DNA of 64,000 nucleotides, taken from contig CAVQNG010000003.1 in NCBI GenBank assembly GCA_963713825.1, forward strand, positions 1,472,001 through 1,536,000, in the 5' to 3' direction. Positions within the stretch are counted from its first letter, which is position 1; each line of letters opens with the position of its first letter. Below are positions 1,078-59,079 of the stretch, in pieces. Source of the stretch: an uncultured Acidobacteriota bacterium. Its GTDB lineage: Bacteria > Acidobacteriota > Thermoanaerobaculia > Multivoradales > JAHEKO01. A program made the position numbers and the translations under genes. Below the pieces are notes generated by a model. The model saw only the letters and a program-made list of their open reading frames with translations, was not told the origin of the DNA and did not search any database.

Positions 1078-1490
1078 GGGGTTGAAGCGCCCAGTGCATT
1101 GCGCCGGGCGGTCTTTGAGGGCCTGGGGTTGAAGCGTCCGTCGCTTGCTCCGGCCGATCCTTGAGGGTGTGGGGGCTTGAGCCCTGGATCGTTGGTGGTT
1201 CTGGGCCACGCCCGAGGCTTTCCCCCGTCGTCCTGGGCCTCCGGCTGGAGACCTTCGAACGCGGCCTCGCACCTCTGTTACTCCCTTACCCCCTCCTAAG
1301 CCCTTATTGCCTTCAGCGGTGCCGTAGGTTCGTTCGGGTGGTTCGACAGGGGGGCTCTCGACAAGCGCAGCGCAAGAGCCATCGAAGAGCACATCAGATC
1401 CGGCGCGCCGGAGAGCGCAGGTGGTGGCCCACCCGTCGCAGTCTGAGTAGCCACCGCCGTCCCCCTGCGGACCACACGGACGGGCCTCCA
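1078..1490 (+). repeat. Composite intergenic repeat, copy 1 (module A 1113-1164; 180-nt structured core 1311-1490)
   Basis: Core aligns ungapped to 12901-13080 (143/180 identical by hand count) and 56710-56889; imperfect inverted repeat 1325-1353 / 1461-1488. Confidence 0.92.
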
Positions 1491-11844: not shown

Positions 11845-12740
11845 TGCTGTTCAGGATCTTTGGCTATTTCCTCGCCGAGGCCGCAGTGAGCCTGCGGCGC
11901 GGTTGGAAAGTCAGCCTGGTGGCCATCGTGATCATCGCCATGAGCCTCTTCATCGGGGGTACTTTCCTGCTGCTTACCTCCAACCTGTCGAGAGTGGTCG
12001 AAAGCTGGCGCGGAGAGGCTCGGATCGTCATCTATCTGAGCGGCGATGAAGTGGCGAGACGAGACTCCGAAGTTCTCCAGATCGCGTCCGCCCCTTCCTG
12101 GGTTTCGGGAGTCGAAGAGATCTCCGCGGCAGAGGCACGCTCGAGATTCGAAACGACGTTTCCCAGCGTCAGAGAGCTGTTCAAAGACTGGGAGGAGGAG
12201 CCGTTGCCACCGTCGTTGGAGGTTGCGATCGAGATCGAAGGCGTTGGGGAAGACGAGCTCGACGATTGGCTGATATCACTACGGTCGGATCCGGCTGTAG
12301 TGATGGTCGACGACGATCGCGATTGGCTCCGACAGTTGGAGGCGCTGATCGCCATCCTGACCGGTCTGGGCGCCGTCATTGGCCTGGTCCTGCTGACCGC
12401 GGCGATTTTCACGATTGCTAGCGTCATACGCCTCACCGCTTATCTGTACCGTGAAGAGATCGAGGTCATGCGCCTGGTTGGGGCGACCGAGCTCTACATT
12501 CGGGGGCCCTTTTATGTCGAAGGGGTGATTCAGGGTTTGCTCGGCGGCCTGCTTGCCATGGCGGGATTGTACGGCGGTTACCTGATCCTGAATCCCCAAG
12601 CCAGTACGACATTTCTCGGCAACGTCCTGGTGGACAGGTTCCTCTCCCCGGAAGCACTCCTGTCGCTTCTTCTTCTCGGCAGTCTGGCGGGCCTCTTTGG
12701 CGCGGTGCTGTCTCTCCGACGCGAAGAGCTGGGCCAATGA
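11844..12740 (+). CDS. ftsX: Cell division permease FtsX
   Basis: TM pattern, PLPPSLEV, EIEVMRLVGAT..YIRGPF..EG. Confidence 0.93.
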   Translation: MLFRIFGYFLAEAAVSLRRGWKVSLVAIVIIAMSLFIGGTFLLLTSNLSRVVESWRGEARIVIYLSGDEVARRDSEVLQIASAPSWVSGVEEISAAEARSRFETTFPSVRELFKDWEEEPLPPSLEVAIEIEGVGEDELDDWLISLRSDPAVVMVDDDRDWLRQLEALIAILTGLGAVIGLVLLTAAIFTIASVIRLTAYLYREEIEVMRLVGATELYIRGPFYVEGVIQGLLGGLLAMAGLYGGYLILNPQASTTFLGNVLVDRFLSPEALLSLLLLGSLAGLFGAVLSLRREELGQ

Positions 12741-13080
12741 GGGTTGAGGCAACTGGGCGTTCCTTCCAGCTGGCCTTTGAGGGCTTGAGGGTTGAATCGT
12801 CCGTCGCTTGCTCCGGCCGACCTTTGACGTAGTGGGAGCCACCTCCCATTCCTCTGGAGCCCTAGGCCCTTACGCCCCCACTGCCCTAAGCCCCTATTGC
12901 CTTCAATGGTGCCAGAGGTCCGTTCGGGTGGTCCGACAGGGGGCGCCTCGTCGAGCGCAGCGCAAGGACCATCGAAGGGCACAGTCGATGAGGCGCGATG
13001 ACGAGACGAGGTGGCGGCCCGTCCGTTGGAGTCTGAGTAGCCGCCGCCGTCCCCCTGCGGGCCACCCGGATGGACCTCCT
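12741..13080 (+). repeat. Composite intergenic repeat, copy 2 (module A 12775-12827; core 12901-13080)
   Basis: Ungapped match to copies 1 and 4 (150/180 identical to copy 4 by hand count). Confidence 0.92.
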
Positions 13081-13155
13081 GTAGGGCCCGCTCAACAGGG
13101 GAAGATCTCATCGAAGCGAAGCTCTTGCCCGACCTCGGCATGCGTTTGGAGCAAC

Positions 13156-13181
13156 AAAAAAGGGGCCGAAGTGGCCCCTTT
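13156..13181 (-). terminator. Intrinsic terminator of TPR gene
   Basis: AAAAAA-GGGGCC-GAAGT-GGCCCC-TTT hairpin; U-tract on minus strand. Confidence 0.8.
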
Positions 13182-13204
13182 CGAGTACTGCGGATCGAGA
13201 AGCG

Positions 13205-49160: not shown

Positions 49161-49490
49161 CTTGAGACGGCCGATCGGATTAGGGATCTCCCTCGTCTGC
49201 GGCCTCACGCGACCATGCCCCTCCGACGAGGGAGACCCGTGGCCCGATCTACCACCCTCAAGACACATCGAGATTCCGACTACTGACTCACCCCCTACGC
49301 CCCTATAGCCTTGACCGGTGCCAGAGGTTCGTCTGGGTGGTCCGACCTGTGGGAGACTGAAGAAGTGTTACCCATGTGGTGATACACAACCGTTACCTAT
49401 GTCCTGACACAGAACACGCAAGGGGCTCCCCTACAATGCCGACGCCGCCCCCCTGCGGGCCACCCGGACGAACCTCTACTAGTAGAGGTT
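49161..49490 (+). repeat. Composite intergenic repeat, copy 3 (module B 49162-49302; core arms 49324-49346 and 49438-49476, interior replaced)
   Basis: Module B aligns ungapped to 56554-56694 (123/141 identical by hand count); core arms match copies 1, 2 and 4. Confidence 0.9.
49361..49416 (+). mobile_element. Isolated IS481-family-like terminal remnant nested in repeat copy 3
   Basis: Two 25-bp direct repeats GTTACC(C/T)ATGT... (19/25 identical) ending in ACA; lower GC than surroundings; no transposase. Confidence 0.55.
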
Positions 49491-54434: not shown

Positions 54435-55979
54435 ATGACGCACTCGACACCACTCCGGGAGTTCAAGAAGGTCCTCGTGGCGAATCGCGGTGAGATCGCT
54501 GTGCGAGTCATTCGCGCGCTGCGCGAGGAGGGGATTGAAAGCGCTGCGATCTATTCGGATCCCGATCGGCAGGGGCTGCCGGTGCTGTTGGCCGACGAGG
54601 CTTATCGAATTGGTCCTGCGGCTTCGCGTGACAGCTACTTGCAGGGCCCTGCGATTGTCGAGTTGGCGCAGAAGATCGGCGCAGACGCCATCCATCCAGG
54701 CTACGGCTTTCTGGCTGAGAATGCCGAGTTCGCCGCTCTCTGTCAGGCAGCGGGTGTCTGCTTTATTGGACCTCCTTCAACCGCCATCGCGGCCATGGGT
54801 TCGAAGATCGAGAGCCGGCGCTTGATTACGGAGGCCGGGGTGCCAATCGTCCCTGGCGGCACGGAGGTGCTCGGGACGGTTGACGAGGCGGTGGCCTTTG
54901 CCGAAGAGATTGGCTATCCAGTCATGCTGAAGGCCTCCGCGGGAGGCGGTGGCAAGGGCATGCGATTGGTGCTCAACCCCGAGGCGCTCGAGGCCGCTTA
55001 TCGTGCTGCCCGTTCGGAGGCCGGTGCCAGCTTTGGCAACGACGCCGTCTACATGGAGAAGTACATCGAGCAGCCGCGACATGTGGAAGTGCAGATTCTC
55101 GGCGACGAGCACGGCAGAGTCGTCGCTCTCGGCGAACGAGAGTGCTCCCTCCAGCGAAGACACCAGAAGGTAGTGGAGGAATCGCCTTCGCCCGTCGTCT
55201 CGCCCGAACTGCGGCGCGAGATGTGTTCAGCGGCGGTCAAGGCAGCGCAAGCGGTTGGCTACACGAACGCCGGTACCGTCGAGTTTCTGCTGGCCCAGAC
55301 CGGTGAGTTCTACTTTCTGGAAATGAACACCCGCTTGCAGGTGGAGCATCCGATCACCGAGATGGTGACCGGCCTCGACCTGGTCCGCGCTCAGCTGGCC
55401 GTTGCACAGGGTCATCCTTTGGGAGAGGAGTTCGAGGGTCTGCAGCCGAATGGCCATGCGATCGAGGTGCGACTCTACGCGGAGGACCCCTACCATGGCT
55501 TCGTTCCTTCACCCGGCAGGATCGAGCGGCTACGTTGGCCCGAGGGGCCCGGTGTACGCAACGATGCAGGGGTCTACGAGGGCGCCGAGGTGACGATTCA
55601 CTACGACCCCTTGCTGGCCAAGCTCATCGTTTGGGGTTGCGATCGACAACAAGCGATGGACCGCCTATCCCGTGCTCTCACCGAGCTGCGAATCGAAGGG
55701 ATTCGCACCACCGCACCGCTCTTCGTGGCGCTGCTCAAAGACGCCGATTTCATCACTGGCAATCTCGACATCGGCATGCTCGATCGCAAGCTGGCAGCCG
55801 GAGAGCTGGCTCCAGAGCGGCACTCCGAGTTCGAAGACCTGGCTGTGATCGCTGCTTCCCTCGAGCATGTTGCCAGCCAGGCCCGGGCCTCTGGCTCGCC
55901 CGCCAAGCAAGGTGGCCTGAGAGGTCAGTGGCGCCAGGCTGGCCGCCGGGAGTCTCTGCGGGGTGACCCATGGAGTTGA
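54435..55979 (+). CDS. accC: Biotin carboxylase
   Basis: ANRGEIA, HPGYGFLAEN, GGGGKGM, RECSLQRRHQK, EMNTRLQVEH, YDPLLAK. Confidence 0.95.
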   Translation: MTHSTPLREFKKVLVANRGEIAVRVIRALREEGIESAAIYSDPDRQGLPVLLADEAYRIGPAASRDSYLQGPAIVELAQKIGADAIHPGYGFLAENAEFAALCQAAGVCFIGPPSTAIAAMGSKIESRRLITEAGVPIVPGGTEVLGTVDEAVAFAEEIGYPVMLKASAGGGGKGMRLVLNPEALEAAYRAARSEAGASFGNDAVYMEKYIEQPRHVEVQILGDEHGRVVALGERECSLQRRHQKVVEESPSPVVSPELRREMCSAAVKAAQAVGYTNAGTVEFLLAQTGEFYFLEMNTRLQVEHPITEMVTGLDLVRAQLAVAQGHPLGEEFEGLQPNGHAIEVRLYAEDPYHGFVPSPGRIERLRWPEGPGVRNDAGVYEGAEVTIHYDPLLAKLIVWGCDRQQAMDRLSRALTELRIEGIRTTAPLFVALLKDADFITGNLDIGMLDRKLAAGELAPERHSEFEDLAVIAASLEHVASQARASGSPAKQGGLRGQWRQAGRRESLRGDPWS

Positions 55980-56473
55980 TTGTTCTCAGCAACGGCCATG
56001 AGGTGAGGGTCGAGGTGGAGAATCACGGGTTTGGAATCGAAGTCAGGATCGGGGACCGGAAGTACCTCGTCGATTCCGTCGCCACCAACGGCGCAGTCCG
56101 CAGCCTGATCATCGAGGGTCAGCAATTCGAAGTCGCCGTTCGGAGCCACGAGGAAGGTCGCTATCAGGTCAGCCACCGTGGTTCGATCGAAGAGGTCGAA
56201 GTCCTGGATCCTCTCACCCATTTGGCCAGACAGGGCTCCGAGAGCCGCGGCCAAGAGGGCCTGGAACTGGTGACCGCCTACATGCCCGGGAGAGTCGTAG
56301 ACGTTCTCGTCAAGGAAGGCGACGTGGTCGCGATTGGTCAGGGCCTGGTGGTTCTCGAGGCCATGAAGATGGAGAACGAGATCCAGGCTGAAAGGGCCGG
56401 CGAGGTCAAGAAAGTCTTCGTCTCCGCCGGCCAGCCCGTCGAGGGCGGCGACCCGCTTTTCGAACTAGCCTGA
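55970..56473 (+). CDS. Biotin carboxyl carrier subunit
   Basis: MPG.V, EAMKMENE biotinylation motif. Confidence 0.92.
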   Translation: MELIVLSNGHEVRVEVENHGFGIEVRIGDRKYLVDSVATNGAVRSLIIEGQQFEVAVRSHEEGRYQVSHRGSIEEVEVLDPLTHLARQGSESRGQEGLELVTAYMPGRVVDVLVKEGDVVAIGQGLVVLEAMKMENEIQAERAGEVKKVFVSAGQPVEGGDPLFELA

Positions 56474-56492
56474 TCCACCCATAATCCTGGGA

Positions 56493-56970
56493 CTTGAGTC
56501 CTGGTTCCGCAGCGGCCGACGTTCCTGCGGCCGAACCTTGGGGGCTTGGGGGGTCGAGACGGCGGATCGAGCCAGGGATCTCCCCCGTCTGCGGCCTCAC
56601 CCGACCATGCCCCTCCGACGAGGGAGACCCATGGCCCGATCTACCACCTTCGAGACACCTCAATAGTCGGATTGCTGACTCACCCCCTACGCCCTCAAGC
56701 CCCTACTACCCTCACCGGTGCTAGAGGTTCGTTCGGGTGGTTCGACAGAGGGCGCCGAGTCGAGCGCGGCGCAAGGACTTTGATAGAGCACAGGAGACGG
56801 GGCGCGATGACGAGACGAGGTGTCGGCCTGCCCGTCAAAGTCTGAGTAGCCGACGCCGTCCCCCGGCGGGCCACCCGGACGGACCTCCACGCTGTGATAG
56901 TCACCTGTTCAGGACCCGGGGTCCAAGCCCCAAGGTTCGGCCGGGAGGCACGACCGGGCGCCTCAACCCT
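56493..56970 (+). repeat. Composite intergenic repeat, copy 4 (module B 56554-56694; core 56710-56889; flanking inverted module-A-like arms)
   Basis: Matches copies 1-3; inverted repeat 56528-56549 / 56923-56943. Confidence 0.92.
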
Positions 56971-57994
56971 CTTCTGATTCTTCGAGTGAGGCGAGAAGGC
57001 GCTTGGAGCTGTCGACGACTTGTTCGACACTCAAGTCACGCATGCAGCGGTGGTGGAGCAGCGGGCACCTGCGGCGGAAGCAGGGCGAGCACCAGCGGTC
57101 GGTGTAGAGCACCTGATTCCCGCGGCCTAGAGGTCGCGTTCGAGAAGGGTCCGTCGGCCCGAAGAGGGCCAAGCAAGGGACTCCAAGACTGGCCGCCAAG
57201 TGCATCGGGCCCGAGTCGTTCGTAATCAGCAAGTCGAGTTGTCCGAGGACCAAGGCGAGGTCGGCTAAGTCGAGGTCAGGTCCTACGACCGGGTGGATCT
57301 TGCCGGTCTCTTCATGGATCCGAACCGCTAACCAGAGTTCCTTGGGGCCCGCGACGATGACAATCCGCACGTCGGGTTGGACGCGTCGGAGCGCGCGCGC
57401 CGCGTTTACGAACCGTCTCCACGGCCATCGTTTGCTGGGCCCGAATTCGGCACCCGGGAAGAGACCTACGAGAGGCGCCGAGCCTGATTCCACTTGCGCC
57501 CGGGCCAGCAGGCTTCGCCCCTTGGTCCGCTGTTCGTCGGAAAGCGTCACGCGGGGCAGCCATACGCTCGGCACCGGGGCGTCCATCGCCTCGAGTAGCT
57601 CCAAATAGTCGGTTGACTGATGCCGACCCGTGAGTCGGGGTCGCTTCACCGCAGGACTCAGCAACGGCGTGCGGAAGGACCAGGAGGGGAACCGCCCGCC
57701 GTAGCCCCACCGTCGGGGGACCTTGGCTCGGTAGGCCAACCAAGCCGAGCGAAAGGAATTGGGAAGGATCACGGCCTCGTCGAACTTCCGGATACGGATC
57801 GCCTCGACCGTCTGCTCGTCTGAAGTGCTACGAGGCAAGGAGTCGCTGACGCTGGGCATCAGACTCAGAAGTGAATGCAGATGGGGACGTGCCAGGACCG
57901 AAACGCTTCTGCCGCTCGCCGCGAGTGCCTCGAAAACAGGCTGGGCAAGGACGGTGTCGCCTACCCAGTTGGGAGCGATGACCAGGGTTTTCAT
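56963..57994 (-). CDS. waaF: LPS heptosyltransferase II (GT9)
   Basis: PNWVGD, LPNSFRSA, PGAEFGPSKRWP, NDSGPMHLA, LFGPT. Confidence 0.9.
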   Translation of the reverse strand: MKTLVIAPNWVGDTVLAQPVFEALAASGRSVSVLARPHLHSLLSLMPSVSDSLPRSTSDEQTVEAIRIRKFDEAVILPNSFRSAWLAYRAKVPRRWGYGGRFPSWSFRTPLLSPAVKRPRLTGRHQSTDYLELLEAMDAPVPSVWLPRVTLSDEQRTKGRSLLARAQVESGSAPLVGLFPGAEFGPSKRWPWRRFVNAARALRRVQPDVRIVIVAGPKELWLAVRIHEETGKIHPVVGPDLDLADLALVLGQLDLLITNDSGPMHLAASLGVPCLALFGPTDPSRTRPLGRGNQVLYTDRWCSPCFRRRCPLLHHRCMRDLSVEQVVDSSKRLLASLEESEEG

Positions 57995-58044
57995 GGCGCG
58001 AGAGTCTTCTCCGGGTGCCGCAGAATAGTACAGGAGGCCGAGCG

Positions 58045-59079
58045 TCAGGGGATGGCCGCCATCTGCTGATCGAGGCGCCTGTCGAGCCAGACCCACAGTT
58101 CCTCCTGCGGCTCGGCCGAAACCGGGAGGCTGGCGAGAGGTATGTCCAGACGTCCCAGCAGCTTGACCTCATCTTTGGTCGTCGTCAGTACGGCGTCGGC
58201 ATGACTCTCTTGGTAGGCCTCTTCGATGGCAGTCAGGCTGGATGACGGGTAATCGTGGTGATCTGCGAAGGTCAGAGTGTCGGCGATGTCGAGATCGAAC
58301 TGGCGGACTGCTTCGAAGAAGCGTTGTGGTCGGGCGATTGCAGCGACCAGGAGGACTCGCGCGCCCTCCGGTAGCGATCCGCCGGCAGCCAATCGGGGTT
58401 TTCCGACGCGAAACGGTGCGCTGAATCCGGGGCCGTCGAAACCGAACCCTCGCAAGGCCGACGCAATCTCCGCGCCAGCCAGTTCTGTCTCGCCGGTCAG
58501 GATCACCGCGTCTGCTCGGCGGACCGCTGACAACGGCTCGCGCAGCCGCCCTCCAGGAAGCAGTCGGCCACCGGCGAAAGGATCGTCGGAAGGAAAAGCC
58601 AGGAGATCGATGTCTCTGAAGAGTCGAAGATGTGAGAAGCCGTCGTCGAGCACGAAGACCTGAGGGGCGGGATCCAACCTCTCCATGGCGTGTCTGCCGG
58701 CCTCGTATCGATCTGGGCCAACCACTACCGACACGCCAGGGAGCATGCCGGCCAGCAGCACAGGCTCATCGCCGGCGACTGTGGGTCCGAGTAGTGGCCC
58801 TTCGCCAGTGCTGACCAGCCGCACTCCTCTGCCGCGGCTCCGATATCCTCGGGAAAGAATGGTCGTGTTGAGGCCCCGATCCCGCAGATGAGCCGCGATC
58901 GCAGCGACCAGCGGTGTCTTGCCGGTTCCCCCCCAGTGTAGGTTGCCAACACTGACTACGGGTCTCGGGAGTCGGTTCGAACGCCTCGCATACCACCGCC
59001 AACGGAGGGAGTGAGCCGCTCCATAGAGTATCTGCCAGGGCGATCGAGAGGGGGTGGGTCGGGGCAGGACGGTGCTCAT
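58045..59079 (-). CDS. lpxK: Tetraacyldisaccharide 4'-kinase
   Basis: VSVGN..GGTGKTP, LSRGY, GDEP, LDDGF.H, LP.GRLREP, F.DHH, TT.KD. Confidence 0.95.
   Translation of the reverse strand: MSTVLPRPTPSRSPWQILYGAAHSLRWRWYARRSNRLPRPVVSVGNLHWGGTGKTPLVAAIAAHLRDRGLNTTILSRGYRSRGRGVRLVSTGEGPLLGPTVAGDEPVLLAGMLPGVSVVVGPDRYEAGRHAMERLDPAPQVFVLDDGFSHLRLFRDIDLLAFPSDDPFAGGRLLPGGRLREPLSAVRRADAVILTGETELAGAEIASALRGFGFDGPGFSAPFRVGKPRLAAGGSLPEGARVLLVAAIARPQRFFEAVRQFDLDIADTLTFADHHDYPSSSLTAIEEAYQESHADAVLTTTKDEVKLLGRLDIPLASLPVSAEPQEELWVWLDRRLDQQMAAIP

Follow-up and report, generated by a model that had tools for sequence, protein, structure and literature searches.

The window analysed here is a stretch of 64,000 nucleotides from an uncultured Acidobacteriota bacterium, namely positions 1472001-1536000 of contig C3 in an assembly (G000) of 5.42 Mb that consists of 38 contigs, has 61% G+C and is 96% complete. 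Between its genes lie four copies of a non-coding repeat, which an earlier note, made from the letters alone, had described as an unrecognised multicopy element of about 180 nt closed by an imperfect inverted repeat. The repeat is real, and the identities counted by hand at the time (143/180 between the copies starting at 1311 and 12901, 150/180 between those at 12901 and 56710) were reproduced exactly; the third pair (1311 and 56710) is identical at 135/180 positions without gaps, and random 180-mers drawn from the window, compared in 20,000 pairs, reach 47/180 on average and 75/180 at most. Zero indels in the alignment of the three full copies and the pairing of the arms of about 28 bp were likewise borne out. 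Two points had to be revised: the structured core measures 166 nt and not 180, and the fourth copy, although present, is not an arms-only member of the family, its interior having been replaced by half of a GTAG-type double hairpin and the end of an IS481-like insertion sequence (IS).

Copy 2 has its core at 12914-13079 (+ strand), scores 168.9 bits (E 3.5e-30) against the covariance model R2 described below, and is flanked by ftsX and a gene for a TPR protein. A terminator-like hairpin with an A-run and a T-run occupies 13155-13183 (no strand assigned), between the copy and the 3′ end of the TPR gene; copy 2 is therefore enclosed by the ftsX stop codon (12740) on one side and by this hairpin on the other. 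Copy 1 (core of 166 nt at 1324-1489, +, 145.5 bits) lies between a peroxiredoxin-like open reading frame (ORF; 518-1060, +) and nfo (1514-2365, -), and represents a subfamily in which six pairs of one helix (P2, see below) are rewritten, with GCTCTC/GAGAGC in place of CxxGTC/GACxxG. Copy 3 (core of 166 nt at 56723-56888, +, 150.3 bits) is flanked by a biotin-carboxyl-carrier-like ORF (55970-56473, +) and heptosyltransferase II (56963-58096, -). Copy 4 (49323-49477, +, 35.4 bits) is a degenerate remnant with nested insertions, in which about 100 nt of IS481-like end and half a GTAG-type hairpin separate the left arm from the 3′-terminal 46 nt. Over 147 nt, copy 4 shares 95% identity with the right junction of an interrupted copy elsewhere on the contig (C3:766453-767982, locus L125), where an IS481-like IS, whose 343-aa ORF matches rve, rve_3 and LZ_Tnp_IS481, sits inside the element; copy 4 retains only the right end of such an IS. 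The ORFs that overlap the elements in the window have no family match, and a conserved small ORF was rejected as a candidate, the sole ATG-led frame (17 aa) being lost in the GATCCGG subfamilies as judged by eye.

Directly 5′ of copy 2 a C-rich array of CCCCTAMG-like octamers, ending in TTGCCTTCAATGGTGCC, covers 12859-12913 (+) and forms what is here called the left extension; corresponding arrays with left extension precede copy 1 (1281-1323, +) and copy 3 (56683-56722, +). Array and extension are found before nearly all of the 75 full-length copies in the genome. The conservation of about 25 nt on the left side only, already pointed out in the earlier note, is thus a general feature: GGTGCC directly 5′ of the core is kept at at least 80-90% in the 75 copies, the 5′ flank (...YGGTGCC) continues into the octamer array, and the 3′ flank is only loosely conserved. 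The complement of the octamers, a repeated GGGGCKTA, is presumably prone to form G-quadruplexes. At two sites the left extension is present but the element is not, and two others have solo right arms beside the extension; a search for sites where the left extension is joined directly to the right-flank module gave six chance matches only.

The helices of the element were derived from an alignment (A3) of 40 sequences, comprising 28 loci of G000, ten from five sister genomes and two of the window copies. They build a three-way junction whose linkers measure 0, 2 and 0 nt. It is closed by helix P1 (21 bp), a 3x3 internal loop and helix P1b (6 bp), and carries two further helices, P2 (8+4 bp, with a 34-nt loop) and P3 (9 bp, with a 21-nt loop holding AGUCUGAGUAGCC). 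When the helix columns are mapped onto copy 2 (+ strand), P1 pairs 12915-12935 with 13058-13078, P1b pairs 12939-12944 with 13049-13055, P2 pairs 12945-12958 with 12993-13007 and P3 pairs 13010-13018 with 13040-13048, and the P3-loop motif AGTCTGAGTAG falls at 13030-13040. Within A3, 94.3% of the cells are paired, against 36-56% with slid partners, and seven pairs show double changes, a number that none of 500 shuffles reaches. One P2 pair is realised as U-A (8 sequences), as A-U (7) or, together with its neighbour, as tandem G.A/A.G (25).

The same fold recurs well beyond the genus. In a second alignment (A5), in which six sequences from this genus and 16 from other genera were fitted to the model, 93.4% of the cells are paired, against 65.7% when shuffled and about 40% when slid; double changes affect 45 of the 48 pairs, and the covariation score is 0.687 vs 0.184 (0/500 shuffles). 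An independent approach (MAFFT followed by RNAalifold, 21 sequences) recovered P1 in part as well as P1b, P2 and P3; compensation affects 29 of the 32 pairs that it predicts. The earlier note had proposed a structural constraint and had named frequent indels and missing covariation in a larger alignment as the outcome that would speak against it; what the larger alignments contain is strong covariation. In other genera the arm sequences are wholly different yet still pair, and what persists are junction and loop nucleotides (GAGCGC...GGCGCGA, AGG, AGUCYGA and CGCCGUCCCC). The inverted repeat that had been reported is thus present, as a covarying helix that lacks sequence conservation between genera and encloses conserved junction and loop motifs. 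Rather than behaving like a terminal repeat of the transposase type, it closes a three-way junction that is strand-specific, and the family is defined by its fold rather than by terminal sequence.

Several measures agree that one strand folds. For 62 copies of G000 the RNAalifold consensus energy reaches -56.8 kcal/mol when the + strand is folded, against -14.2 for the - strand; copy 2 alone folds at -105.9 kcal/mol (z -7.5, 200 shuffles) on the + strand and at -92.5 (z -4.8) on the other. Cells with G.U outnumber those with A.C by 55 to 1 in this genus and by 25 to 8 in other genera, and the model applied to one copy gives 189 bits on the + strand against 46 on the - strand. The element probably acts as RNA or as single-stranded DNA.

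Using a profile built from BLAST hits, nhmmer finds 109 matches in G000, 75 of them full length. All are intergenic according to crude ORF calls based on G+C at third codon positions (4,246 ORFs, 86% coding). Including the left extension, 62 of the 75 measure 203-207 nt, nine measure 222-254 nt and two 173 nt; together with the 156-173 nt of relatives in other genera, this upholds the length constraint that had been suspected. Mean pairwise identity among the copies is 83%. The few pairs that are at least 97.6% identical include duplicated contigs. In the sister genomes, 27-40 model matches are listed, from at most 64 candidates scored.

Eight of the longer copies (C3:1136091, C3:194458, C4:254357, C25:105117, C4:305236, C25:37626, C3:1615467 and C3:568121) have their P3 loop (AGTCTGAGTA) replaced by a REPIN-like double hairpin of about 60 nt, GTAG-headed on both sides; the 222-nt copy at C5:260960 has no such insert. 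REP sequences are short GTAG-headed hairpins, REPINs are two REPs in inverted arrangement, and RAYTs are REP-associated transposases. The GTAG insert also joins an element fragment to an IS110-type gene on contig C26, and it is present at the copy-1 locus of sister genome G004. As regards the assembly itself, contig C1 (414 kb, with a slightly lower G+C of 60.4%) has no element copy where about six would be expected at genome-wide density, and may be a separate replicon or mis-binned DNA. Small contigs (C13, C14, C16, C26 and C27) duplicate parts of the large ones (C3:974-996 kb) at an identity of at least 88%, and 293 ORFs with at least two copies reflect these duplicated contigs; the assembly is partly redundant, via strain variants or segmental duplications.

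With BLAST the element is found in 6/6 genomes of the genus and in 0/35 others. Model R1, built from A3, gives weaker full-length matches in 25/45 genomes and 11/20 genera of the family, and matches in 16/151 genomes of the order. Model R2, built from A5, raises this to 65/151 genomes and 36/64 genera of the order, always at full length (156-173 nt), and has 0/114 matches among genomes of other orders of the class and 1/139 outside the class. By family, the R2 counts are 21/22 (f1), 6/8 (f3), 3/8 (f4), 1/21 (f7), 15/21 (f8), 3/21 (f9), 6/10 (f10) and 9/10 (f11), with 0/6 in f2, 0/1 in f5, 0/21 in f6 and 0/1 in f12. Genomes with the element carry from one to at least 19 matches, several of them at least 19. 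The E-values of the models are rough and the gene calls crude, and an unpublished genome (G006) is included in the BLAST, R1 and R2 tallies and in that of the Y1-like protein below, with no other claim resting on it. We read the 180-nt repeat as the form in which a family of 156-173-nt non-coding elements, spread across the order, has expanded in this genus.

Collections of plasmids and phages contain no match to the element. The absence of a known RNA family, as stated in the earlier note, was confirmed with Rfam 15: the whole window gives 0 matches at the gathering threshold, copy 2 with its flanks gives chance-level matches only at E<=10, and ten loci from other genera give 0 matches at E<=0.01. 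No description of the element was found in the literature, supplementary repeat lists being outside the coverage. Hammerhead core, sarcin-ricin (AGUA) motif, T-loop, retron msr/msd, 6S RNA and Y RNA were considered and set aside, with no Rfam signal or motif match. Metagenome runs that hold at least half of the window's words are labelled sediment or salt-marsh (about ten studies, one of them possibly the origin of the window). Atlas look-alikes of one neighbouring protein are most frequent in Acidobacteriota, and a secondary NCBIfam match bears an ‘acido-’ name.

With respect to insertion, the earlier remark that no target-site duplication (TSD) is shared holds for the genome at large, flanking direct repeats being at the level of shuffled flanks. 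Specifically, none rises above chance among the 63 of 75 copies with pattern-placed ends, where longest direct repeats of 0, 2 and 3 nt occur in 23, 33 and 7 copies, against 20.7, 36.6 and 5.5 when shuffled. Judged by local GC skew, the copies show no preference for either replication strand (36 vs 35 of 71); the skew flips from about -0.04 to +0.04 near C3 ~800 kb, likely the replication origin or terminus. Among 73 classified copies of G000, 33 lie between convergent genes, 15 are tandem-sense, 14 tandem-antisense and 11 divergent, and in three other genomes the corresponding numbers are 13, 5, 4 and 5 (27 classifiable of 40 loci); both sides of the element favour gene 3′ ends. In other genera the neighbours are unrelated housekeeping genes that differ in 10/10 loci, and in one cultured-type genus they differ among the five species examined (seven loci fetched); none is a mobile-element gene. 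C-rich short tandem repeats adjoin the element in two other genera (CCCCAA in G016, CAACAAC in G143), flanks extend the closing helix at G016, G020 and L090, and no common 5′ motif precedes the element in other genera.

Occupancy was compared for six loci in five sister genomes, i.e. in 30 comparisons, of which five are filled, six empty, one holds another hairpin of 95 nt, three are probably empty, being gaps without match, and 15 are broken by contig ends. The ftsX locus of copy 2 is empty in G001, G003 and G005, and in all three the octamer array and the terminator-like hairpin are kept. Sequence comparison also finds the copy-3 locus empty in G001 and G003, and in G005 it holds the 95-nt hairpin (module B) between like flanks, GGTGCCA on the left and CACGA on the right. 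The copy-1 locus is filled by another subfamily in G003 and holds an inverted, disrupted copy in G004. By coordinates there are one more empty site (a 46-nt gap), three more filled ones and three gaps of 193-326 nt without match at E<=1e-70, the sequences of which were not inspected. The mobility proposed in the earlier note is borne out to this extent, that occupancy of orthologous loci differs between sister species. Many matches start at or near contig ends in G002 and G005 (590 and 640 contigs), and less often in G001.

The surroundings of the element are themselves repetitive. In the window (12740-12913, 56480-56722 and 49201-49322) and throughout G000, the intergenic regions are made up of several other repeat families strung together in a set order, with a tandem unit of about 47 nt that bears a REP-like GC hairpin (GGTTGAGGCG-hairpin-GATCTTTGAGGGCTTGGGGG; 97 BLAST pieces) and with modules A (~40 copies), B (~31) and D, followed by the octamer array and then by the element. 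Module A, with about 40 genomic matches and often upstream of the octamer array, lies at 56600-56682 (+) and, upstream of copy 4, at 49201-49290. Downstream of copy 3 is a REP-like GC hairpin ending in GCCTCAACC (56938-56969, +), and reversed copies of this hairpin family constitute module C upstream of other copies (97 BLAST pieces). Module B is a 95-nt hairpin whose termini resemble those of the 166-nt element (AGGGTTCGGCG...CGTCGGACCCCCT); besides L066 (contig C168 of G005, ~950-1250) it occurs in the left flanks of many copies in G000, and it is a possible sister family of the element.

Taken as a whole, the alternative left by the earlier note, a length-constrained non-autonomous mobile element or a multicopy non-coding RNA (ncRNA) family, is supported part by part. 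The reading preferred here, to which we give a probability of about 55%, is that of a structure-defined, non-autonomous mobile non-coding element whose closest kind are bcr1-like or Correia-like structured repeats. Its spread would depend on a folded single strand, and a postulated trans-acting factor would recognise shape and junction motifs instead of a terminal inverted-repeat sequence. In this genus the element would land where C-rich octamer arrays end on their 3′ side (5′-...GGTGCC^), with its orientation fixed, at sites mostly near gene 3′ ends. The folded strand might be RNA arising by read-through from neighbouring genes, with single-stranded DNA as the alternative, and each copy might then add a long hairpin domain of a size suited to RNase III to the transcript.

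A number of observations weigh against such an element. No transposase adjoins any copy examined, in agreement with the earlier note, which had seen no mobilising enzyme in the window, and no longer element with the same arms around a gene of its own was found in G000 when all arm-only nhmmer matches were paired; the sole long candidate from this pairing is the copy interrupted by the IS481-like IS. Signs of recent activity are not evident in G000: for 43 of 62 copies the closest paralogue is only 85-93% identical, and singleton variants number only 99 in 62 copies x 165 columns (about 1%), so that most variation is common to several copies and a very recent burst is not apparent. The ‘empty’ sites might have lost a copy. 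Where G000 and G001 have a copy at the same locus, the two are identical at 144/166 positions and rank only 18th and 9th of 39 relatives; because they are not nearest relatives, shared occupancy may reflect hot-spot reinsertion or gene conversion, and these copies are unusable for assessing purifying selection in situ. A strictly RNA-level role would predict a sense/antisense bias toward neighbouring genes, and there is none (15 vs 14). As to transcription, four short contig pieces from RNA library X16 match the element at 90-95% with unlike flanks; they are other copies present in that library and at most a weak sign of transcription, DNA carry-over not being excluded; contigs of the other three metatranscriptome runs do not cover the element and are uninformative either way. 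Finally, the conservation of loop motifs across the order exceeds the needs of a purely selfish element.

This last point leads to the explanation that survives best beside the preferred one, namely a functional ncRNA family, trans-acting or a cis domain of transcripts, that is kept by the host and owes its copy number to duplication or recruitment. Junction and loop nucleotides held across the order while stems covary, a length held at 156-173 nt, singletons of about 1% next to a mean pairwise difference of 17%, and the position of copy 2 inside a 3′ untranslated region, after the ftsX stop codon and ahead of the terminator, are all what a host-kept RNA would display. The same family lacks a consistent gene neighbour and any orientation bias toward genes, varies from one to at least 19 copies per genome with a patchy presence within families, leaves orthologous sites empty in sister species and tolerates the replacement of its conserved P3 loop by a double hairpin in eight copies; moreover, no promoter or terminator of its own is evident in the flanks read by eye, no promoter scan having been made. 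Host retention is possible but on the unlikely side. Rather more doubtful is the proposal that the fold is a new class of structured RNA, not a decayed transposon, that is itself the agent of its own spread or processing, ribozyme-like or guide-like, together with an unlinked host or mobile enzyme; what is mobile would then be defined by its RNA and conserved throughout the order.

[quoted passage not shown] Because the arms vary between genera while internal motifs persist, however, the MITE is the weaker half of the earlier alternative, as the earlier note had itself suspected. Arm mismatches are G.U on one strand only, there is no TSD, and no partner IS with these arms was found in G000, where the nine multicopy ORFs that were translated are ordinary non-transposase genes by eye (no family search was made). 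We consider this origin quite improbable.

Chances are just as slim for the end of a single-stranded-DNA transposon or a REPIN-like element that an enzyme of the HUH/Y1 class (type IS200/IS605 TnpA or RAYT) would mobilise. A strand-specific fold, the missing TSD and conserved sequence on the 5′ side only would suit such an enzyme, G000 has four weak matches to PF01797 (Y1_Tnp-like genes, ~313-364 aa), and the GTAG-type double hairpins of this genome do insert into the element. Against it stand the even distribution over replication strands, arms that are not hairpins with a 5′ GTAG, and the lack of any TnpB-type domain in G000 (PF07282, 0 matches). More specifically, the one Y1_Tnp-like gene of the four that was profiled has single-copy flanks without repeats, and the protein was rejected as mobiliser on its distribution: it occurs in 35/45 family genomes and is absent from the element-rich G023 and G058, whereas G015 has 23 gene copies but only two element matches. 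This family of about 313 aa (C3:1031156-1032097 and three paralogues) has several copies in many of the family's genomes, with the 23 of G015 as the maximum, and may be an unrecognised IS or a domesticated transposase. An IS110 recombinase was also rejected, with three genes matching PF01548 vs about 75 element copies and a single truncated element fragment upstream of one of them, joined via a GTAG hairpin.

Lastly, a DNA-level site, for instance a cruciform or a module that binds proteins and serves to organise nucleoid or replication, acting with G-quadruplex-prone octamer arrays, would account for the short tandem C-rich repeats constantly adjoining the element in three lineages and for its neutral orientation toward genes and replication, but it is most improbable, given that G.U-only mismatches and the large energy difference between strands favour one folded strand and that compensatory changes in three helices would be superfluous for a site that acts double-stranded.

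If the reading as a structure-defined mobile element is true, this is a large family without a match in Rfam 15, with hundreds of instances in the sampled genomes and no linked protein gene. It would put the customary distinction between ‘MITE’ and ‘ncRNA’ to the test, with arms that evolve as RNA helices, loops conserved as in a functional RNA, and sites gained and lost as in mobile DNA. The covariance model can be used for annotation, and the element explains many contig breaks in metagenome assemblies of the group. It also raises the question what factor would recognise this fold, and in which form, RNA or DNA.

Among known systems, bcr1 of the Bacillus cereus group is the nearest. In a review (PMC3184786), which also covers NEMIS/Correia, REP/SMAG and Nezha, bcr1 is described as an intergenic element of about 155 bp with 5-bp direct repeats, transcribed and with compensatory changes, whose distribution is not conserved between related strains and which is confined to one species group. 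Like bcr1 as portrayed there, the present element has a multi-helix, RNA-type fold kept by compensatory changes and occupies non-conserved genomic positions. Unlike it, the element lacks direct repeats, only contig pieces from an RNA library bear on its transcription, a 27-bp helix closes its three-way-junction fold, and it is found in 36/64 sampled genera of an order.

Long inverted arms, intergenic position and high copy number are shared with the Correia/NEMIS sequences of Neisseria and the ERIC sequences of enterobacteria (100-160 bp), which form long hairpins when co-transcribed. These have conserved terminal repeats and a TA duplication, and are linked to RNase III and mRNA stability; the element differs from them in that its arms vary freely, its internal motifs are conserved and no duplication is present. 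With REPs and REPINs it has in common long-lived, genus-wide populations of small hairpins at non-orthologous intergenic sites without an adjacent transposase. It is distinguished from these by a branched fold of 166 nt, by arms that are not self-complementary and lack a 5′ GTAG, and by Y1-like genes that do not follow it, true GTAG double hairpins being a separate family. HEARO/omega-RNA, the IS605-orfB RNAs and the IS110 bridge RNA resemble the element in size (150-200 nt), conserved fold and many copies per genome; each of those adjoins its own nuclease or recombinase gene, and no examined copy of the element does so. Unlike integron attC arrays, copies are scattered singly between housekeeping genes. 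What goes beyond the bcr1/Correia kind is, besides the absence of a duplication and of a linked enzyme, a branched and length-locked fold in which freely varying arms are combined with motifs kept across a whole order.

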